Positions 53,884-63,931 are shown, counted from the stretch's first letter. The stretch: DNA of 64,000 nt from an uncultured Bacteroidales bacterium (GCA_902790595.1 CADASL010000005.1:28949-92948), one strand, 5' to 3'. The notes: generated from the sequence alone by a model not told the origin. Numbers and translations are program-made.

Positions 53884-54386
53884 TTGTGGCCACTGGTGCC
53901 GAATCGACGGGCAAAACCGAACTCTGCCGATTTTTAGCCCAAACGCTTGATATTCCGTGGGTTCCAGAACTGGCGCGCGGCTACGTTGAGCAGTTGGGCC
54001 GCCCCTACTCTTACGATGATGTGGTTGAGATTGCCCGTCTGCAGATTGCCGAATTTGAGCGCGCCACTACCGCTGGTCACTCTGCCGTTTTGTTCGATAC
54101 CGACCTGATTATCACCAAAGTATGGTTCGATGTGGTTTACGGCCGCTGCCCCGAGTGGATTCCCGAAGCCATCCGTTCGCATCCCGCCACGCTGCATCTG
54201 CTTTGCCTGCCCGATATTCCCTGGGTGCCCGACCCCGTGCGCGAAAACGGCGGCCCGATGCGCGATAAACTATCGGCCATCTATCGTAACGAGCTGGAAA
54301 CGTTTGGTTTGCCGTATGCCGAAGTGAACGGCAACGGCGATGAGCGACGGAATTGTGCCTTGATGGCGGTGAAAAAAGTGCTGTAA
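53856..54386 (+). CDS. NadR-type P-loop kinase (ribosylnicotinamide kinase-like ATPase)
   Basis: The internal ATG 53856 gives MAERTDTKIIVATGAESTGKTELCRFLA (Walker A). It overlaps the pnuC 3' end by 28 nt; pairing with pnuC is the classical context. Confidence 0.75.
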   Translation: MAERTDTKIIVATGAESTGKTELCRFLAQTLDIPWVPELARGYVEQLGRPYSYDDVVEIARLQIAEFERATTAGHSAVLFDTDLIITKVWFDVVYGRCPEWIPEAIRSHPATLHLLCLPDIPWVPDPVRENGGPMRDKLSAIYRNELETFGLPYAEVNGNGDERRNCALMAVKKVL

Positions 54387-54454
54387 AACAGCGTGTTAAA
54401 TCTGACCCGACAAGCAAACATCTGAATTGTAATCACATCTGTAAAAAAACGCGA

Positions 54455-55258
54455 ATGGCTGAAAACTGGGAAATATACGCCGACTGGAATCCGTGGCACG
54501 GCTGCACCAAGATTAGCTCGGGGTGCAAGCATTGCTACGTGTACCGACAAGACGAGATGTACGGCAGCGAAATATCGACCCAGGAATGTCGGAAAACCGC
54601 CAACTTCAACCTTCCCGTAAAGCGGAAGCGCGACAAGAGCTGGAAGATTGAAAGCGGCAAGATGGTTTTCACCTGCTTCACCTCCGATTTTCTGCTGAAA
54701 GACGCCGACGCGTGGCGCCCCGAGTGCTGGAAGATGATGAAAGAGCGCAGCGACCTCTGGTTCTATTTCTTCACCAAACGCATCGACCGCTTTACGGAGT
54801 GCATCCCCGACGACTGGGGCGACGGCTACGACAATGTGCTTGTGGGCTGCACCGTCGAGGACCAGGAAATGGCCGATTACCGACTGCCGATTTTTCTGTC
54901 GGCCCCCATCAAGCATAAGAGCATTATGGTGGCGCCAATGCTCACCAATGTTGACCTTACGCCCTACCTCACCCCGCAGATTGAGGAAGTGGCCGTCAGC
55001 GGCGAGTCGGGTGTTGACGCGCGACCCTGCAACTACGACTGGATTCTCAACGTGCGCGAACAGTGCATATCGAAAGGCATCGCTTTCCGCTTTCATCAGA
55101 CGGGGGCTCACTTTATCAAGGACGGCAAGATGTACCGCATCCATCGGCGCTTTCAGCTAAGCCAGGCTCACAAGGCGAACATCGATTACAAAATCGGCAA
55201 ATATATGGTGCCCGAAACCATCAGGTTTGAATGGAAGGATGATGACTATCACGAGTGA
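54455..55258 (+). CDS. DUF5131 (phage Gp37/Gp68-like) family protein
   Basis: The internal ATG 54455 gives MAENWEIYADWNPWHGCTKISSGCKHCYVY, the W-x-P-x-x-GC-x(4)-GC-x-x-CY N-terminal motif of this family. Confidence 0.7.
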   Translation: MAENWEIYADWNPWHGCTKISSGCKHCYVYRQDEMYGSEISTQECRKTANFNLPVKRKRDKSWKIESGKMVFTCFTSDFLLKDADAWRPECWKMMKERSDLWFYFFTKRIDRFTECIPDDWGDGYDNVLVGCTVEDQEMADYRLPIFLSAPIKHKSIMVAPMLTNVDLTPYLTPQIEEVAVSGESGVDARPCNYDWILNVREQCISKGIAFRFHQTGAHFIKDGKMYRIHRRFQLSQAHKANIDYKIGKYMVPETIRFEWKDDDYHE

Positions 55259-55354: not shown

Positions 55355-56464
55355 ATGAAACCGCATTACATCTGGCAATATCCCGACTGGCCTAATTTTC
55401 GTTGGGAAACCGACAAAATAATGAACCTTCTTTCCGAAGTGCGTCTTCAGGAAGGGCGCATTACAGGGATGATGGATGGCTTAGGATTCGAAGTTCAGAC
55501 AAAAACATCACTTGACGTGATGACTGAAGATGTTATCCGTTCCAATGAGATTGAAGGTGTTTTGCTGAATGCCGATAGAGTACGGTCTTCAGTTGCCAGG
55601 CATCTTGGCATTTCAACGGAAGGACTACCTGAGCCGGACCATTACACTGATGGTGTTGTGCAGGTAATGATTGATGCTGTCAGCAACTATTCTGATGAAC
55701 TAACCGAACAGCGCCTTTTTAATTGGCACGCAGCCTTGTTCCCAACTGGGCGAAGCGGCATAACCCCCATAACAGTGGCGGGATGGCGAGTTGGCGAAGA
55801 GCCAATGCAAGTGGTTTCTGGCACGCTCGGCAAAGAGAAGGTTCATTACGAAGCCCCGGCATCAGCCGATGTGCCAAAAGAGATGGCGCGTTTTCTGGAT
55901 TGGATTAACAATGAAAAGACTTCCGACCCTATTCTAAAAGCGGCTGTTGCGCATCTGTGGTTTGTCGCCATCCATCCATTCGACGACGGAAATGGCCGAC
56001 TAACCAGGACAATCACCGATATGCTGCTCGCCCGTGCCGATGGTATGCCACATCGCTACTACAGTATGTCAGCCACAATTCTCAAGAGTAAGAACAAATA
56101 CTATGAAGCGTTGGAAAACACCACAGTGGGCAATGTTGATATTACATTGTGGCTTGAATGGTTTCTTCAAACCTTAAAAGGTGCAATGGAACACAGCGAA
56201 GTTGTTGTCAGCCGCGTGGTTAAAAAATCGTTGTTCTGGCAAGAGCACCGCAATGTGGCTATGAACAAGCGCCAAGTTAAGGTTGTGAACAAATTGTGGG
56301 ACGGATTCGAAGGCAAACTCACAACCGACAAATGGGCTAAACTTTGCAAAACCTCGCAGGCTACCGCTCTCCGTGATATCAACGATTTGATTGACAAAGG
56401 CATTTTGGTAAAAGGTGCGGAAGGCAGCAAGAATACCAGTTATGTTCTTTTGGAAGATAAGTAA
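55355..56464 (+). CDS. Fic-family protein (class II, intramolecular inhibitory helix) with C-terminal wHTH-like domain
   Basis: 369 aa. It has the Fic motif IHPFDDGNGRLTRT (HxFx[DE]GNGRxxR) and an upstream SNEIEG matching the inhibitory (S/T)xxxE(G/N) motif. Confidence 0.9.
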   Translation: MKPHYIWQYPDWPNFRWETDKIMNLLSEVRLQEGRITGMMDGLGFEVQTKTSLDVMTEDVIRSNEIEGVLLNADRVRSSVARHLGISTEGLPEPDHYTDGVVQVMIDAVSNYSDELTEQRLFNWHAALFPTGRSGITPITVAGWRVGEEPMQVVSGTLGKEKVHYEAPASADVPKEMARFLDWINNEKTSDPILKAAVAHLWFVAIHPFDDGNGRLTRTITDMLLARADGMPHRYYSMSATILKSKNKYYEALENTTVGNVDITLWLEWFLQTLKGAMEHSEVVVSRVVKKSLFWQEHRNVAMNKRQVKVVNKLWDGFEGKLTTDKWAKLCKTSQATALRDINDLIDKGILVKGAEGSKNTSYVLLEDK

Positions 56465-56480
56465 GGGAGGAGAACAAAAC

Positions 56481-56515
56481 GGGCGGAACCGATGATTTTT
56501 TAGCCGATTCCGCCC
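56481..56515 (+). terminator. Hairpin downstream of fic (possible terminator)
   Basis: gggcggaa...ttccgccc forms an 8-bp GC-rich stem (56481-56488 / 56508-56515) with a 19-nt loop, followed by the moderately T-rich tgattgtgtttgcttatttt. Confidence 0.4.
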
Positions 56516-56677
56516 TGATTGTGTTTGCTTATTTTCTAATCTAACGGGTCTGGCTCATCGTTTTCTATACTTTCTACGAGCGAGGCATCGAAGGCCAGGA
56601 ACACTTCAAGGAAAGCAGTCTCGCGGTAGAAATAGTTGGGGTCGTCGGTTAGTTTGTATTGCGATAATCCTCTATTT

Positions 56678-58537
56678 TCAAGTGTAAAGCATTTGTTGAA
56701 TACACTCTCTCAAATACTTAAACGGAAATGGTACTACTGTCAGTTGTCCGTTTCGCACGAAAGTCACACTCATTAGCGGTAATAATTGTTCAAAGAACAG
56801 TTCTGATTGCTTATAAGGAAGAATCTTTCTTATGTTAGCGGCGCATTGTATCGTTGAATTTAAGCCGTAGCCAGACACTCCCGAATAGTAATATTGACAA
56901 CCATCTTTTTGGTAGCATTTAATATCTATACAAGAACCGAACAATTGTTCTTTGTATTGAGTGCTGCGGACACCTTTCACAGAACGCTTGTTTTCAGCTA
57001 CCGCCACTTCCTGCTTGTATCGTTTTAATTGAGACTCAACTTCGAACATATCGGGAAGTGTTCTTAAATCCGTCTCCTGGATAATGTTTATTGACTCTCC
57101 GTGTTGAATTGTACCACAAACAATGCCATCTTCATCGTTGTCAAATATTTCCATACAATCATTGAATTTGTTCATATTAAACAAGTCCAATTCCAACTCT
57201 TCGAAATCAAATGTTCCATCTGGGTGAATGGTCATAAAAAAGAAACGGGGTGTCTTATCGTCCATAATCCGTAAACCGAAAGTCCAATCATCCAAGAAAT
57301 TGTACTCTTTCCAATCAACCAAAGATATGGTTCTCCCCTGAATGTCGTTCTTAATCAAAAGCTCTTCGGCGACGGTGTTTATCGCACTTGTGACATTAGT
57401 TTTGAAATTCTCATAGGTTATGTGCTGAACAACGCACCCCTCAAATTTGTCGTTGTGCGGGTCGTTGCCGCCATCGTATGTGTCTTTGTCGTGTATTATC
57501 CTCAAATTGAGGCAACCTTTTTTGGGGTGCTTTATTACTGTAGCCTGCACACTAAATCTTTCTTTTAATGCGGATTGCAAGTCGTCAACAAAATCACTAG
57601 AATAGGTATCGCCAATTGCATCAACTATTCTTATTGGTTGCTTCTTTATCAATTCACCAATCAACGCTTTTGTCTTTTCAGACAATTTAGGCTCCACAAC
57701 CAACTCTCTTAAATTGGGTATACTCAGAAATTGAACTTCAACAAATTTGCCGCACTTCTCATTAAACTTCTTTAGCACATTAGTTATCACTCCCAATTTG
57801 CATTGTTTGTAGTATTCAATTCCCCGAATATCCAAGAATGTTATTTCGTTTTTGTCTTTTTTTGTTTGACGGGCAATAAAACCAACATCTTTGCTGTCTT
57901 TCGGTTTGCGGCGTAATGTTTGGTTTCGCGATAATATGTACTGTGGGTATTCTTCAAACTTCTTTGCTTTAAATTCTATTTCTTTGCGTAATGTGGCTGA
58001 TGAGAACGTTTGAATCGACCATTTTAAAACAAGGTCTTTTGTGATTTTCAACTCCAAACAAGGAATTTGCGATACTGGCGCATCCTCACCTTTGAATCGT
58101 TTTATCCAAGAAGCATCGTAGCAATAGAAATGGCCTGTAATGTTGTTGAATTTCAACTCATCGGTTTCGTATGTGCCCAAACTATTGAGCAACAATTGGG
58201 CAATTACGTGTTCTGGAACTTGTTTAAACCCCGTGTCGCGCTCATCATTGGAAATGATATTGTTTCCTCCGTCAGACTTGACGAGTTCTCCATTCAATTG
58301 CCTGAAATTGTGTTCATTGTGCTTTAACAACACATAAAACGTTTTGCCGCCTTCAAAAACAACCGAAAGAACATTGCTGTTCTCAAATGGCACATCAACC
58401 ATTTTAGCCCCATTGGGGAAATATGGATTTTTCTTACTTGGATTCTTGACTTGAGAATCGATTCTAAATATGTCGTAGGTTTTCAGAAGTTTCTCTCTGT
58501 CAACCTTTATTGCTACCTGATTTATTATACTTTCCAT
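56678..58537 (-). CDS. 619-aa protein of unknown family; candidate Argonaute-like (MID/PIWI-type) component of the operon
   Basis: Uninterrupted ORF whose ATG at 58537 overlaps the upstream gene by 38 nt. The only motifs I can relate to a family are GIEYYKQCKLGVITNVL (about aa 239-255, compare Argonaute MID Y-x3-K...G-x-x-T-Q-x-V) and the C-terminal NGQLTVVPFPFKYLRECI (compare the PIWI C-terminal h-P-x-P-h-x-Y-A). The gene call is solid; the family call is inference. Confidence 0.6.
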   Translation of the reverse strand: MESIINQVAIKVDREKLLKTYDIFRIDSQVKNPSKKNPYFPNGAKMVDVPFENSNVLSVVFEGGKTFYVLLKHNEHNFRQLNGELVKSDGGNNIISNDERDTGFKQVPEHVIAQLLLNSLGTYETDELKFNNITGHFYCYDASWIKRFKGEDAPVSQIPCLELKITKDLVLKWSIQTFSSATLRKEIEFKAKKFEEYPQYILSRNQTLRRKPKDSKDVGFIARQTKKDKNEITFLDIRGIEYYKQCKLGVITNVLKKFNEKCGKFVEVQFLSIPNLRELVVEPKLSEKTKALIGELIKKQPIRIVDAIGDTYSSDFVDDLQSALKERFSVQATVIKHPKKGCLNLRIIHDKDTYDGGNDPHNDKFEGCVVQHITYENFKTNVTSAINTVAEELLIKNDIQGRTISLVDWKEYNFLDDWTFGLRIMDDKTPRFFFMTIHPDGTFDFEELELDLFNMNKFNDCMEIFDNDEDGIVCGTIQHGESINIIQETDLRTLPDMFEVESQLKRYKQEVAVAENKRSVKGVRSTQYKEQLFGSCIDIKCYQKDGCQYYYSGVSGYGLNSTIQCAANIRKILPYKQSELFFEQLLPLMSVTFVRNGQLTVVPFPFKYLRECIQQMLYT

Positions 58538-61500
58538 CTATGGCATTTTTAATGTATAAAACGGCTTGTTCGTTGGGAACCAACTCGCCATTAACTAAAG
58601 AATACAAACACGGAATTTCAACTATCATTTGTGTGACCGAAGGTTGATAGTTTGATTGGCTCACAATTTGGGTATTCGCAACAATAATGGTCTCGGCTCC
58701 GCATTCGTCTTTCTTATTAGTTATCTTCTCAATGTATTCATCTGCATTGAATTGGGTGCTTTCTTTCCAATGTTTGAAATCGATAAAAATAGGTTTACCT
58801 TTCACTTGGAAATCAAAGAACTCATAATATTCGGGCACCAAATCTTCCAATTCTACATTTATAATTTGCGAGAAGAAAACTCTCCCGACAAATTCTCCTA
58901 ATGCTCCTTTGTAAATATTGTTGAACAACGGTGGCGACATTATGAACTTACGTTTCACCCAATCTGTGGCATATCTATTTTGCTCGAAATAAGATTTCAA
59001 TCCTGGCAGTTTCAATAGATTGTGTAAATTCACGCTTTCTGCGGATTCTGTTGCGAAACCTGATTGAGCCGAGAACGACACCTCGGTTTTGGAAAAGTCG
59101 TTTTCGGTTTTGTAATAGACATTGTTGGCCACTGTTGGCAACTCAATGTAGAAGAACCTCCACGAAGTGTTTTCCCACTCTTCTTTTGTTAATGTCGGGT
59201 GTTGCAAGACAAAATCACGCAGACGCTGCCATCGTTCAATATTATCTTTATTCCAATATTTGAAATTCAGCATTCTCAGTATCTGTCGGTTCGCCTTATA
59301 CGAAACATCTTCCGCTTTCTTCACAGCGTCAATTTCTTCTGGAATTAGCATTTTGCGATTATCTTTCAACCTATTTGCAAGTGCCCGAAACTCCCAATTG
59401 AAATCCTTTGATTTATCATCAATTATCGGATAGTATAAGACATCTGCAATCTCGTCGTGAGCAAAAATGTAAATATGCTGGCTTTTCATATTGGTTCTGC
59501 ATATTCGACCAACCGCCTGAATCAGACATCTGGTTGCGGCAATCTGCGCACTATTGGTGTCTAATAAAGAGTTGAAAAACTTGTTCTTTCCTCTCAACTT
59601 ATCGAATGCGGCTCGTATATTGTTGTCTTTATCTGCTGGTGAAATTTCATAATTGTCGCACAGGTATTCACATTGATAAATGTAACGCGCCACATCTTCA
59701 ATCGGCACGTCTGGCAGAATCATATTCACCATTACATTCGTAGGCTTATCGAGATAAATGGCATCGAAATCTTTCTGTTCGCGTTCTTTAAAATCGTTTG
59801 TATGAACAAGTTTTCCTTTTAATAATTCGGGAATGTCATATTGCAAATTTTGCCCTGCGCCAATGGTTTGGTATGACGATACTACAAAACGACGATGGCC
59901 TTTTGCCAGGGCATCAAGAATGTCGTCCTTTTTGTTGTCGAAATCGGCACTATCCAAAATAACCGCCACTTTTTCGTCATAAGGGACTTTCGCTTCTTCG
60001 GAAATCGCCTTGAATATTTTTTGTAAGAAAGACCATTTCAAGGTATTGCTATCTTCTTTAGGTAACGTAGTAAGCATACACAACAACGAATATATTTCGG
60101 GGTGGTTGATAAACTGCTTATAAACCCAAGCGATTCTTATATATCGACACTTAAGATAGACTTCGGTCCTTTTCCCTTTGCTATCCAATCTTGGTGGCAG
60201 CATACTTTCAAGTTCGTTGTAAATCAACTCTGCCACTTCTTCGTTTGAAAAGATTTTCCTCCATTGATTACTATTGATATAATCACCATCGGTTATGTGT
60301 TCTGTCACACCAACTTGAATCATATCTTTCTTGTAACCCGAGACTGAATTTTTGAATTGTTGATGAAGCCGTTCTCTATCGTTGTCTGTGAGTTGGCGGT
60401 ATCCACTATGAAGCCGCCATTTCAAATAATTCAAATCGTAGTTGGCAGTCACGCTTTCCAACGATGCTGTAGCAGATAGTCCTACAACTTTTGCCGACAA
60501 ACACATTTTCTTCATTATCTTTTCTGGTGTTTCCTCAAAAGAATAACGGAAAATGTCGGTTTTCAAATCGTGTCGGTCCTCATCAAGAAATTCATAATAG
60601 TTCCAACCTTTGTTGCAAAATCTGGTATCGCCACTTTCATAATCATCATCAATGCTGTTGGCTTCGTTATTGTTCCCCTTCCAAGTCATTTGCACTTCAC
60701 GAACCAATTTCGTTACAATGCTTGGCTCAGCAATAAATGTTGATAACACGGTTTGAATTGCTGAGTCAATAGAATAGTCCCTTTGAGTATCAGAATGACT
60801 TATCTCTTCTTGCCGAAGTTGCTGATAATTGATTGAAAGAACACTAACACCTTTCAAGAAATAATTAATGAAACGCTTAACATCGGAAAGAACTTCTTGA
60901 ATTTTCTTGGTTTCGCTGTCCGAATTGAGCAATATGGCATTCCAATTCCCTTTGCCGTCAAATTTGGTTACAATGTCTTTTTTGTCTGAAACCATTGATG
61001 AATATCCAAAGTCATTGAACAAGAAGTATCGTTCTTCGTGGTCGAAATCCTGCGACTTATGACAGAAATCGAGTTTGTGCTTCTCGTTAGTTTCCTGTGC
61101 CAATTTCTTTATGTCATTTATAATTTTTTCCAAGGGGAACTTCTTGTTATACTCATTCTTTTTCCTGTTTTCCGATGGTGTGATTAATCTTTTGGGGATT
61201 TCTCTTGTCAAAAGCCCCGAATGGATTCTCTTAAAAAGGTCAATATAGTTTATCCCATTCTCGATATTCCTGTCAATGATATTATTAAGCATTGTCTCTT
61301 TTGTGGCATCAAACTCATCGACAAAAACAAAGGAATTCTTGAATGACGGATGATTGTAAAAGAAATATGGATGCTCGACAATAGTTGAATGTTCGAGCAG
61401 AAACTTATCAATGGTAAGGAAATAAACTGAATAGTCTTGAGTGAACACTGACGGGTATAACTCACCAATCCAATGCCATTGCGCTTGAGTTTTGACCGCT

Positions 61501-61988
61501 TGTAGTTTTTTCTTTCTATCCTTAAATTCCTCGTGAAGTTTATATGTAAGCATTTTGCGGAAATTTCTTTCCGCTTCTTGAAATTCATTGAATTGGGATT
61601 CTTTATGTCTTTCTTTTAATAATTCGACTATTTCATATTTTTCTTCCAGTTTCTTAAACTCATCGCTTTTCCATACCTTGTCATTTTTCTTGACATCATC
61701 TCTTATTGAATCGAAATTCTCTTTTACAAAATCAATGTTTGGTTTAATTCTAAATACCTTTTTCCGTTGTTCTTCCGATAATATATCCAACAAGTCATTA
61801 TACGGGTCATCAAGATTCTTTTTGAGTGTGGTCACAAAGAAAATTTTCTTATCTGGATATTTTTCCATTAGTTCTTTGATATAATGGATAACCTCGTAAG
61901 TTTTGCCTGCACCTGTCGGCATATCTATAAGAAACAACCCATTGGTTGATTGTTCGTCTTCGCAAAAACTCTTTATTACTTCTTTCAT
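58500..61988 (-). CDS. 1162-aa SF2 (DEAD/DEAH, type-III-restriction-Res-like) helicase with C-terminal PD-(D/E)xK-like nuclease motif
   Basis: The motifs are I (DMPTGAGKTY, aa ~22-31), II (FVFVDEFDAT), III (VVGLSATASL) and VI (IQAVGRICRTN). The C-terminal YKGALGEFVGRVFF...FFDFQVKGKPIFIDFKHW (nt ~58770-58915) fits E...D...(D/E)xK. Confidence 0.8.
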   Translation of the reverse strand: MKEVIKSFCEDEQSTNGLFLIDMPTGAGKTYEVIHYIKELMEKYPDKKIFFVTTLKKNLDDPYNDLLDILSEEQRKKVFRIKPNIDFVKENFDSIRDDVKKNDKVWKSDEFKKLEEKYEIVELLKERHKESQFNEFQEAERNFRKMLTYKLHEEFKDRKKKLQAVKTQAQWHWIGELYPSVFTQDYSVYFLTIDKFLLEHSTIVEHPYFFYNHPSFKNSFVFVDEFDATKETMLNNIIDRNIENGINYIDLFKRIHSGLLTREIPKRLITPSENRKKNEYNKKFPLEKIINDIKKLAQETNEKHKLDFCHKSQDFDHEERYFLFNDFGYSSMVSDKKDIVTKFDGKGNWNAILLNSDSETKKIQEVLSDVKRFINYFLKGVSVLSINYQQLRQEEISHSDTQRDYSIDSAIQTVLSTFIAEPSIVTKLVREVQMTWKGNNNEANSIDDDYESGDTRFCNKGWNYYEFLDEDRHDLKTDIFRYSFEETPEKIMKKMCLSAKVVGLSATASLESVTANYDLNYLKWRLHSGYRQLTDNDRERLHQQFKNSVSGYKKDMIQVGVTEHITDGDYINSNQWRKIFSNEEVAELIYNELESMLPPRLDSKGKRTEVYLKCRYIRIAWVYKQFINHPEIYSLLCMLTTLPKEDSNTLKWSFLQKIFKAISEEAKVPYDEKVAVILDSADFDNKKDDILDALAKGHRRFVVSSYQTIGAGQNLQYDIPELLKGKLVHTNDFKEREQKDFDAIYLDKPTNVMVNMILPDVPIEDVARYIYQCEYLCDNYEISPADKDNNIRAAFDKLRGKNKFFNSLLDTNSAQIAATRCLIQAVGRICRTNMKSQHIYIFAHDEIADVLYYPIIDDKSKDFNWEFRALANRLKDNRKMLIPEEIDAVKKAEDVSYKANRQILRMLNFKYWNKDNIERWQRLRDFVLQHPTLTKEEWENTSWRFFYIELPTVANNVYYKTENDFSKTEVSFSAQSGFATESAESVNLHNLLKLPGLKSYFEQNRYATDWVKRKFIMSPPLFNNIYKGALGEFVGRVFFSQIINVELEDLVPEYYEFFDFQVKGKPIFIDFKHWKESTQFNADEYIEKITNKKDECGAETIIVANTQIVSQSNYQPSVTQMIVEIPCLYSLVNGELVPNEQAVLYIKNAIDGKYNKSGSNKG

Positions 61989-62006
61989 ATGATAAAACGT
62001 GTCTAA

Positions 62007-62879
62007 CTAATACTTCTGTTTCCCTGGTATAACTCCCCTAACCCCGCCTTTCGGGTTCTCAACATCGCCTTTGTAGCGCGGAATCAGGTGAATGTGAACG
62101 TGAAAAACGCTTTGCCCTGCGGCCTCGCCAACGTTTATGCCCACGTTGAAGCCATCGGGGTGGAAACGCTCCGCCAACAGTTTTTTGCAATGGTTCACCA
62201 AAAGCCACAAGGCACGCTGTTCACGTGTTGTTAAATCGAAATAACTGGCAACGTGGCGTTTGGGGATAATCAACGTATGGCCTTTGCTCACTGGGTAGCC
62301 GTCGAAAAAGGCAACTGCGGTGGCGGTCTCGCTCAACAATTCCACTTTCGGATTCAGGTTGCAGAAAGGGCAACCTTGGACAATCTCGTATTTCTTTTTG
62401 TAATCGGTTTTGTTGAAGTGCCTGTACTCATATATTTCGCAATTCTCGTTTGCAAAAACGCTTTTGTACGGTAGAACCACATTGCATTGATATGTGGGTT
62501 GCTTGTGTACAAAATGCGTGCGGAACCCTTCGCTTTTCAAATCGCGGCGGACTGCGAAATAGGCGGTTCCTGTTGGTTTGAGCAGTTCTGAAACCGACAT
62601 CAGCACTTCGGCTTGTTCTTCGGGTTCAAGAACGTTGAGCACATAATTGCAAATTATTGTGTCAAAGCGTTTTGTCGGATATTCGGGGCGGTAATAGTTG
62701 TCGTAACCGACAATGTTGTAGCCTTCCTTCTGAAGTTGGTCAGTGTCAAAACCAAATCCACAGCCAAAATCAAGAATCTCGCCTTTCAAAAGGTTGTTTT
62801 GTTTCAGCCATCGTGTTGGAAACGAATATGTTGTGCGCTCTTTGGCCGTCAAATGTGGGTTGTTCTTTATCTTTTTCAT
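62007..62879 (-). CDS. Fusion protein: class-I SAM-dependent methyltransferase (N) + histidine-triad (HIT) nucleotide hydrolase/transferase (C)
   Basis: I start at ATG 62879, which forms an ATGA overlap with the upstream stop; the ORF track starts 3 codons earlier. The N-half has ILDFGCGFGFDT (motif I) and FDTIICNYVLNVLEPEE. The C-half has CPFC...FFDGYPVSKGHTLIIPKRH...AGQSVFHVHIHLIPR (HxHxHxx). Confidence 0.82.
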   Translation of the reverse strand: MKKIKNNPHLTAKERTTYSFPTRWLKQNNLLKGEILDFGCGFGFDTDQLQKEGYNIVGYDNYYRPEYPTKRFDTIICNYVLNVLEPEEQAEVLMSVSELLKPTGTAYFAVRRDLKSEGFRTHFVHKQPTYQCNVVLPYKSVFANENCEIYEYRHFNKTDYKKKYEIVQGCPFCNLNPKVELLSETATAVAFFDGYPVSKGHTLIIPKRHVASYFDLTTREQRALWLLVNHCKKLLAERFHPDGFNVGINVGEAAGQSVFHVHIHLIPRYKGDVENPKGGVRGVIPGKQKY

Positions 62880-63931
62880 CGCTCCCAATATTTAAAGCCC
62901 ATATTTTCAGCAATCTGCGCCAATGGCGAGAATGTCTTTTGAAAAACATTGCAAAAATCATCGTCTGACATACGAACCAATTCACCAACTGAATCATATA
63001 CAGTAAGATAATCTTCGAGAATCTTGTTGTTAGGATTCTTCGGATAGATTGTTTTCAATGCCTTATGGTGCAACTCCGCATACGGATTCAGGTAAATATC
63101 CAACGGCGGCAGATTGTTGCTTTTCGACGAATTAATGCTTGAATCGGCTGGCAACAAATTCCATAACAGATTGTGCGACACAAAACTCCACGGAATAAAA
63201 TGGTCCAAATCGTAGTCTTTGGCAATCAACGGTTTATTGGTGTATATGCAACGAATTGAGCCAACGGTTTCGATATATGCGTCCCAAAACTTATGCTGCT
63301 TTGTGAGTGAATCGCGAAGAATCGGTTTTATAAGTTTCGAAGGCACATCTGGCACATTCGGGTTGCGTTTTTGCAGAAATTCGGTCAGGTTCCAAAAAGC
63401 AAAATCGCGCAGAATTGTGTAATGCTCAGTCAGATATTCAACCCAATTGTCGTTGATTACAATTTCATCGCCGTAAATGGCATAAAGACAATCATTTTCA
63501 AAACGTTGCGATTTGGCCACCACATCTTCATCGTAGGTGTATTTTATCCAAGGCGAAAGAAAACGATATGGTACATTCAGAGTGAAAACCCTTAAAAACT
63601 TCTTTGTACCGTTCAGATTATCAAGCAAATATTTCTTTATCTTATCCTTATCAGATTCGATTGAAATCTGAAACGCATTTTGAATTTCAAGCGATTTGTC
63701 GAACAGCGAATCGGACTTGCCAAACGAGATTTTAAAATAATGAATCGGATACCAAGATTCCGCCACCATTCCTGCAATGATTTCCCAAAACGAGATTCGC
63801 GTTTTGCGCTCTTTCACAACAATATCCAACAATGCCACAAACCAATAGAATTTGTACGTTGCAGTGGTATTGCTGAATATCCCTGCAAGGGTGGGGATTG
63901 GAAGTTTGTAGCTGTTTGGTAAGGTCATCAT
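62876..63931 (-). CDS. HNH-endonuclease-domain protein with uncharacterised ~230-aa N-terminal region
   Basis: 351 aa. The HNH core is YDLDHFIPWSFVSHNLLWNLLPADSSINSSKSN. I cannot place the N-terminus (ATYKFYWFVALLDIVVKERK...) in a family. It is the first gene of the operon, and only 69 nt of upstream sequence lie inside the window. Confidence 0.75.
   Translation of the reverse strand: MMTLPNSYKLPIPTLAGIFSNTTATYKFYWFVALLDIVVKERKTRISFWEIIAGMVAESWYPIHYFKISFGKSDSLFDKSLEIQNAFQISIESDKDKIKKYLLDNLNGTKKFLRVFTLNVPYRFLSPWIKYTYDEDVVAKSQRFENDCLYAIYGDEIVINDNWVEYLTEHYTILRDFAFWNLTEFLQKRNPNVPDVPSKLIKPILRDSLTKQHKFWDAYIETVGSIRCIYTNKPLIAKDYDLDHFIPWSFVSHNLLWNLLPADSSINSSKSNNLPPLDIYLNPYAELHHKALKTIYPKNPNNKILEDYLTVYDSVGELVRMSDDDFCNVFQKTFSPLAQIAENMGFKYWER

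Follow-up and report, generated by a model that had tools for sequence, protein, structure and literature searches.

A candidate DdmDE-type defence module in an uncultured Bacteroidales bacterium, with a predicted Argonaute that lacks the INS domain

DdmDE systems, recently characterised as defences against plasmids, degrade DNA processively by means of a helicase-nuclease, DdmD, recruited by an Argonaute, DdmE, and how they work has been established for two organisms only: V. cholerae (VC1771/VC1770; Protein Data Bank (PDB) entries 8u3k, 9ezy and 9bgk; Jaskolska 2022, Loeff 2024, Bravo 2024, Yang 2024) and L. casei (PDB 9iw3, 9ix4 and 9ixm; bioRxiv 10.1101/2024.10.09.617351). DdmE has been grouped with the long prokaryotic Argonautes (pAgos) as a clade named long-C (Loeff et al.). 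A helical domain, INS or DID (107 amino acids (aa), residues 510-616, in L. casei), is inserted in the PIWI domain of both studied DdmE proteins, and both accounts present it as the recruiter of the helicase-nuclease: INS together with L1/PAZ clamps the helical bundle of DdmD HD2, INS also holds the 5'-phosphate-proximal duplex, and its deletion abolishes V. cholerae DdmDE activity. INS has been called conserved in long-C pAgos, a statement based on orthologues gathered at a 60% identity cut-off, and a 2026 review describes it as the recruiting element for DdmD. Here we analyse 64,000 nucleotides (nt) of DNA from an uncultured Bacteroidales bacterium (GCA_902790595.1 CADASL010000005.1:28949-92948; this whole stretch is hereafter the window, with positions counted from its first letter), where the gene for a 619-aa protein, which an original prediction made from the sequence alone had called an orphan with Argonaute-like motifs, lies directly after the open reading frame (ORF) of a helicase-nuclease, on the same strand and overlapping it by 38 nt:

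58500..61988, minus strand: ddmD-like gene, 1162 aa, superfamily 2 (SF2; XPD/DinG-like) helicase with a C-terminal PD-(D/E)xK nuclease
56678..58537, minus strand: ddmE-like gene, 619 aa, ATG start, Argonaute of the long-C type, predicted to be inactive

These two genes very probably constitute a horizontally acquired DdmDE-type defence module, with a mechanism assigned by homology. The system is of a known kind and is found by existing DdmDE profiles; because the INS domain is absent from its Argonaute, it is a new architectural variant.

Identity of the Argonaute and of its helicase-nuclease partner

The ORF of the original prediction was confirmed at its full extent and length, and we place it on the minus strand, none having been named. 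The 619-aa protein is unannotated because neither Pfam nor NCBIfam gives any match, and annotation by those collections currently leaves it as a hypothetical protein; none of the Argonaute-related Pfam families (Piwi, ArgoMid, pPIWI_RE) was found among 31 family members even at E<=1, where chance matches alone appeared. The family is detectable only via DdmE-specific profiles and structure. The PADLOC profile for DdmE matches aa 226-400 (4.4e-8), and a phmmer search of PDB sequences returned the DdmE proteins of L. casei (9iw3, 4.2e-15) and V. cholerae (4e-7), with alignments in two stretches, namely the L1-to-MID region and the C-terminus. An AlphaFold2 model built from 31 homologues (mean predicted local distance difference test (pLDDT) score 83.3; predicted template-modelling (TM) score, pTM, 0.81) was searched with Foldseek against the PDB, and ranks 1-6 were all DdmE (E 1e-34 to 6e-23, query-normalised TM 0.60-0.75). 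The best of these, from L. casei (E 1e-34) and V. cholerae (E 4e-30), matched over the whole length with TM 0.72-0.75; they were followed by Marinitoga piezophila Ago (MpAgo) and human AGO1/2/4 at ~1e-9 to 1e-7, and then by matches with E >=0.016. On the strength of the PADLOC, PDB sequence and Foldseek matches we assign the protein to the DdmE-type Argonautes and, as modelled, regard it as a divergent DdmE relative with the bilobed long-C architecture. The suggestion that it was Argonaute-like, and DdmE-like in particular, thus held in all three kinds of search, and the structure-prediction and Foldseek check that had been proposed for it returned the Argonaute fold.

The gene upstream proved to encode a DdmD homologue, in keeping with the proposal that the pair is placed as DdmE is after DdmD. 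The 1162-aa protein matches the PADLOC DdmD profile (2.7e-39) and, among PDB sequences, the DdmD proteins of L. casei (1.8e-60) and V. cholerae (1.2e-35). Its catalytic motifs, with conservation counted over 60 full-length homologues, are as follows:

61899..61919, minus strand: Walker A, PTGAGKT, aa 24-30 (K29 in 60/60)
61308..61319, minus strand: helicase motif II, DEFD, aa 224-227 (D224 and E225 in 60/60)
58773..58895, minus strand: PD-(D/E)xK nuclease site, residues E1032, E1056, D1059, D1070 and K1072

The five nuclease residues correspond to V. cholerae E1059, E1082, D1085, D1100 and K1102 and are all invariant in the 60 homologues; in V. cholerae DdmD the corresponding Walker A, motif II and nuclease residues have been shown to be essential.

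L. casei DdmDE is the best match, in sequence and in structure, for both window proteins, and shares with them the gene order, the N-L1-miniPAZ-L2-MID-PIWI layout, a PIWI domain without activity, the C-terminal PFPxKYLRE motif and the helicase-nuclease partner. It differs in having a 107-aa INS where the window protein has ~20 residues, and Tyr339 where the latter has His361, at an identity of ~16%. The V. cholerae pair has in common with ours the Mg2+/5'-phosphate pocket, the minor-groove Lys, the five DdmD nuclease residues and the HD2 helical-bundle region; its DdmE differs by the essential INS/DID and at R232 and Y363, which are E231 and H361 here, and its host is a Vibrio, whereas the window pair belongs to a Bacteroidales host and stands beside two further genes, for an HNH protein and a methyltransferase (MTase)-HIT fusion.

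Other described systems are more distant. ApsAB of E. coli ST38 (PMC11096173) likewise joins a DdmD-related helicase-nuclease, ApsA, to a protein resembling Argonautes, and a broad ApsA/DdmD family across taxa was already described there. ApsB was reported not to resemble DdmE in sequence and to carry a Y-x3-K...QG...K MID motif without recognisable PIWI or PAZ (PMC11096173), and ApsA is ~1450 aa long, whereas the window helicase-nuclease is DdmD-sized and both window proteins match DdmE and DdmD directly. An ApsB-like reading was rejected on those direct matches, ApsB itself being set apart by its description and not by sequence. The long-B pAgo plus nuclease (BPAN) and SPARTA/SPARDA systems share the principle of an inactive guide-dependent Argonaute sensor with a separate effector; their output is collateral or abortive infection, whereas DdmDE acts through processive degradation by the recruited helicase-nuclease, and the structural similarity of the 619-aa protein to them is far lower (long Agos E ~1e-9, SPARDA 0.09).

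Domain layout, guide pocket and PIWI

The 619-aa protein carries N, L1, a reduced PAZ (C-APAZ), L2, MID and PIWI within one chain, with approximate limits transferred from L. casei DdmE by homology: N aa 1-106, L1 107-185, mini-PAZ 186-223, L2 224-281, MID 282-408 and PIWI 409-619. Two short segments had been singled out in the original prediction, whose residue counts for them are exact:

57773..57817, minus strand: EYYKQCKLGVITNVL, aa 241-255, aligned to L. casei DdmE 218-232
56681..56764, minus strand: C-terminal strand-helix TFVRNGQLTVVPFPFKYLRECIQQMLYT, aa 592-619, with R595, P603, P605, K607 and E611

The first had been read as the MID pocket for the guide 5' end. In L. casei DdmE the published limits are 201-258 for L2 and 259-407 for MID (bioRxiv 10.1101/2024.10.09.617351), and the segment accordingly falls inside the linker L2, ~30 residues ahead of the MID start. 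Only K247 and G249 are kept in it across the family; Y242 varies, and the residue at 243 may be F or Y. The true pocket lies ~110 residues downstream, at aa 354-396, and the likeness of aa 241-255 to the canonical Y-x3-K motif is a coincidence. The second segment, taken for the PIWI C-terminus, is just that: few stretches of the family are as well conserved, with P603, P605, K607 and E611 invariant or nearly so, and K607 and E611 match V. cholerae K674 and E678.

With aa 241-255 in L2 and not in MID, we also dropped the idea built upon that assignment, namely a short pAgo with MID from ~aa 240, no N-PAZ lobe and a novel N-terminal domain. It is true that the protein does not reach the length of canonical long pAgos, that its PAZ is tiny, and that the 2026 review loosely labels DdmE a short pAgo. 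Nonetheless N, L1, mini-PAZ and L2 of DdmE account for the first ~280 aa, all covered by the full-length DdmE structural match; Loeff et al. assign DdmE to the long pAgos; the top short-pAgo match of the model, SPARDA 9qbq_B, reached only E 0.09 and TM 0.24; and the protein is partnered by a helicase-nuclease in place of an APAZ protein. On the PDB alignments, the L. casei domain limits and Foldseek together we consider the short-pAgo reading ruled out, and give it next to no credence beside that of a DdmE-type long-C Argonaute.

We mapped the pocket by projecting HMMER alignments to DdmE onto the published V. cholerae and L. casei residues, and counted conservation over 124 sequences sampled for similarity to the 619-aa protein (the sample used below wherever 124 sequences are mentioned):

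57350..57478, minus strand: MID 5'-end/Mg2+ pocket, aa 354-396, with Y354, H361, Q371, E392 and K396

H361 is equivalent to V. cholerae Y363 and L. casei Y339, and Q371, E392 and K396 to V. cholerae Q376, E401 and K405. By the same homology mapping the pocket is closed from the C-terminus by K607 and E611, whose V. cholerae counterparts, K674 and E678, hold the guide Mg2+ and 5'-phosphate. Five of the six V. cholerae pocket residues (Y363, Q376, E401, K405, K674, E678) are thus identical here, the one change being Tyr to His. Conservation is close to complete: Y354 and K396 are present in all 124 sequences, T374 is invariant, Q371, K607 and E611 are each kept in 123 and E392 in 115, while 86 sequences have His at position 361 and the other 38 have Tyr. 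The minor-groove sensor of V. cholerae DdmE, K230, is K229 here (K or R in 121/124).

A DEDX catalytic tetrad, which the original prediction could not identify, is missing by column conservation, there being no invariant acidic column within aa 403-600. The best acidic column of PIWI is D538 (D in 107/124, N in 13/124). Directly after F420-G421 in PIWI strand 418-426 stands R423, in a slot that varies across the family and that we take, without structural superposition, to be the position of the first catalytic Asp of canonical Agos. A non-slicing protein fits the lack of an invariant PIWI acid and the variability of the R423 slot, and the 619-aa Argonaute is predicted from these residues to be catalytically inactive.

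Absence of the INS domain and handover to DdmD

The PIWI domain of the 619-aa protein has almost nothing at the place where INS is inserted in the two studied DdmE proteins:

56954..57010, minus strand: INS/DID site, ~20 residues (aa ~510-528), a lower-confidence loop after helix 497-513

The AlphaFold2 model shows at this site a single helix (497-513) and that loop. Between aligned positions there are 171 aa in the query vs 281 aa in L. casei DdmE, a deficit of 110 aa that nearly equals the 107-aa INS. The span between the conserved anchors at aa 495 and 553, which is 59 aa here, is bimodal in the 124 sequences, at 42-62 aa in 95 and 122-143 aa in 29, and the remaining domain lengths are equal in the short and the long forms. 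The INS-less form, from Bacteroidales, Clostridia, Fibrobacter and Treponema, is thus the commoner one in this sample, and the 619-aa protein belongs to a large INS-less branch of DdmE; no description of INS-less DdmE homologues was found in the literature that we searched. In a midpoint-rooted neighbour-joining tree neither the long nor the short forms were strictly monophyletic: most short forms lay together in leaf order, and a few (P0045, P0051-P0053) fell among or beside long ones. Lacking strict monophyly in such a tree, we make no claim on the direction of INS gain or loss.

The DdmD partners of short and long DdmE have an identical architecture, the HD2 bundle region, at aa ~560-612 of the 1162-aa protein, included. 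Loss of the HD2 helical bundle from the partners of INS-less Argonautes was considered and rejected, as the segment is 31-53 aa long in all 60 DdmD homologues.

By homology, the module would work as follows. The 619-aa Argonaute would bind a short single-stranded DNA guide, probably 5'-phosphorylated, whose 5' nucleotide and Mg2+ would sit in the MID pocket (Y354, H361, Q371, E392, K396) closed by K607/E611. So guided, it would base-pair with the complementary sequence in a plasmid, or in another mobile element, that invades the cell, without itself cutting it, and would pass the displaced non-target strand to the 1162-aa DdmD, which would move 5'->3' on ATP and degrade the DNA processively through its PD-(D/E)xK nuclease. 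What is observed in this family is the fold, conservation of the pocket, catalytic residues preserved in DdmD and a recurrent pairing of the two genes; the type and chemistry of the guide, the class of target (plasmid or phage) and the handover to DdmD would follow the studied systems by analogy.

Three points weigh against this reading. The 619-aa protein shares only ~15-16% identity with the DdmE proteins studied so far; the Tyr that contacts the 5'-phosphate is replaced in it by His (H361); and, with INS absent, the handover cannot be identical to that of the studied systems. Docking of DdmD therefore cannot equal the published structures, and recruitment would have to go through the L1/mini-PAZ/L2 surface, DNA-mediated contacts or another interface, which makes the handover interface the weakest step of the mechanism. 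We offer tentatively, as a possibility short of a probable one, that the INS-less clade recruits or activates DdmD otherwise than by the INS-mediated handover that now serves as the paradigm, by L1/mini-PAZ alone, by DNA structure or, in some loci, with the help of HNH and MTase-HIT proteins. If that were true, INS would be a lineage-specific add-on and not part of the core of DdmDE. A clade that keeps the pocket, the partner and the operon in the absence of INS is a natural test of which contacts the handover needs.

The V. cholerae result allows a harsher explanation, in which INS loss inactivated the Argonaute and the locus is a decayed, non-functional relic; deleting INS did kill V. cholerae DdmDE, and the window has only a truncated copy of a small ORF found after ddmE in close relatives. 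This we regard as highly improbable, given that the INS-less form makes up 95 of the 124 sequences in several phyla with uniform INS-region lengths (46-50 or 59 aa), that the pocket residues are invariant, and that the DdmD partner is always intact, the two genes overlapping as if translationally coupled. A working DdmDE-type module with an altered handover remains our reading.

Spread, origin and neighbouring genes

The protein is no orphan, as had been supposed. Its relatives form 53 clusters at 90% identity, the closest being a hypothetical protein from a Bacteroidales metagenome-assembled genome (96% identity), and a profile search of 1.84 billion representatives (50% identity) found 1464 members at E<=1e-3, 687 of them at E<=1e-30. 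A scan of one genome per species gave 164 genomes with a relative, among hosts that include Bacteroidales, many Clostridia, Fibrobacter, Treponema, lactobacilli, Nostoc and methanogens. We fetched 80 of the loci (Bacteroidota, Bacillota, Fibrobacterota, Spirochaetota, Cyanobacteria and methanogens), and tblastn found a DdmD homologue in 71; where both ORFs could be delimited, the end of ddmD lay <=7 nt from the start of ddmE, or overlapped it by up to 71 nt, in 67 of 69 loci. The INS-less clade is common among gut and rumen anaerobes (Bacteroidales, Clostridia). The common occurrence of DdmDE-like barriers to plasmids in Bacteroidales and Clostridia bears on the spread of plasmids and on the genetic tractability of gut bacteria.

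Guanine-plus-cytosine (GC) content over ddmD and ddmE is 34-40%, vs 50-55% in the flanking housekeeping genes (SecDF, Rho, Ctp protease, PnuC). This dip over the two genes and the presence of a 59%-identical relative in a defence island indicate that ddmDE was acquired horizontally by the Bacteroidales chromosome. The relative (P0014, locus L083) has ddmDE without HNH or MTase-HIT in a dense island that also holds Cas12a-Cas4-Cas1, a WYL regulator, two GmrSD-like proteins, a Toprim protein and a tubulin-like gene.

Upstream of ddmD in the window, and on its strand, are two more genes, so that four minus-strand ORFs succeed one another with a 13-nt overlap (351-aa/293-aa), an 18-nt gap (293-aa/ddmD) and the 38-nt overlap of ddmD and ddmE:

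62876..63931, minus strand: 351-aa protein with an HNH_4 nuclease domain, its gene sharing 13 nt with that for MTase-HIT
62007..62888, minus strand: S-adenosylmethionine (SAM)-methyltransferase/HIT fusion, 293 aa, 18 nt upstream of ddmD

HNH_4 (~350 aa) and MTase-HIT (~290 aa) genes were always an overlapping pair in the window and in five other loci where we found them:

L029 4687-6608: HNH_4/MTase-HIT pair
L081 3562-5489: HNH_4/MTase-HIT pair
L086 7010-8873: HNH_4/MTase-HIT pair
L089 6952-8873: HNH_4/MTase-HIT pair
L092 6892-8855: HNH_4/MTase-HIT pair

This compact arrangement, which recurs as a four-gene unit with ddmDE in three chromosomal neighbourhoods (the window, L081 and L029, the last from Paludibacteraceae with the four genes between glmS and a TonB-dependent receptor), would suit a single four-gene system in which HNH and MTase-HIT are functional parts of DdmDE; they might make up for the missing INS by producing or processing 5'-phosphorylated guides or by marking self DNA. 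HNH_4 proteins, with or without HIT, also occur directly downstream of ddmE in one Lachnospiraceae and one Methanoculleus genome. We think such a system unlikely. The HNH_4 gene adjoins ddmDE in only 3 of the 80 species-genome loci, with HIT gene remnants alone beside ddmD in two others (L028 and L084), and most INS-less DdmDE loci are without such genes. The MTase-HIT family (5194 matches at E<=1e-10) exceeds this DdmE clade ~100x in size and is conserved far more strongly, its top 120 members being 75-91% identical across Bacteroidales families. The pair is also found with unrelated cargo: the next same-strand gene varies in five of the six loci, being DdmDE in three, HerA(DUF87)+NurA+N6/N4 MTase+SLFN-AlbA in one and an unknown 649-aa protein in one, and in L092 a type I CRISPR-Cas locus is convergent to the pair, with a HigB-like toxin/helix-turn-helix (HTH) pair divergent upstream. 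Because it has other cargo elsewhere and most DdmDE loci lack it, we treat the pair as a module that travels with DdmDE and is probably separate from it.

Comparison of L029 with window 61785..63904 and the genes beyond shows HNH proteins 79% and MTase-HIT proteins 86% identical, vs DdmD at 33% and DdmE at 36%, which suggests from sequence identities that the ddmDE cassette was replaced beside a conserved pair. PADLOC matches for the pair are weak only, and our literature searches for a defence system combining HNH, HIT and methyltransferase found nothing relevant; the two genes seem to form an undescribed module, either defensive or mobile, or else to anchor defence cargo. The HNH/HIT-DdmDE neighbourhood recurs across domains of life. 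One Lachnospiraceae locus (L023 11975-13234) has an HNH_4 protein directly downstream of ddmE, and one of Methanoculleus (L073 11818-13454) has HNH_4 downstream of ddmE and, after it, a free-standing HIT protein that shares 57% identity with the HIT part of the window fusion.

On the other side of ddmE, window 56539..56655 (minus strand) holds a 39-codon remnant, without a start codon, of a small acidic ORF (64-69% identity) that is intact in relatives, where at 56-65 aa it overlaps or closely trails ddmE (L084 9462-9659, L081 10887-11057). Beyond it a stem-loop was read from the sequence:

56471..56515, minus strand: GC-rich stem-loop GGGCGGAATCGG...CGGTTCCGCCC followed by the T-run GTTTTGTT, between the convergent ddmE and Fic genes

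This is likely the operon terminator. It was not listed by our pattern scan because its loop exceeds 8 nt; that scan, made for sigma-70 promoters and terminators and without Bacteroidetes promoter patterns, gave no excess over shuffles. A 287-aa ORF at 54281..55144 (minus strand), between a NadR-like AAA_28 gene and Fic, has no Pfam, NCBIfam or PADLOC match and no relative among the fetched loci. The convergent gene itself, at 55355..56464 (plus strand), encodes a Fic/DOC protein that carries DUF4172 and, at its C-terminus, an HTH (PADLOC SoFic, 1e-41), and may be a second defence gene of the same small island.

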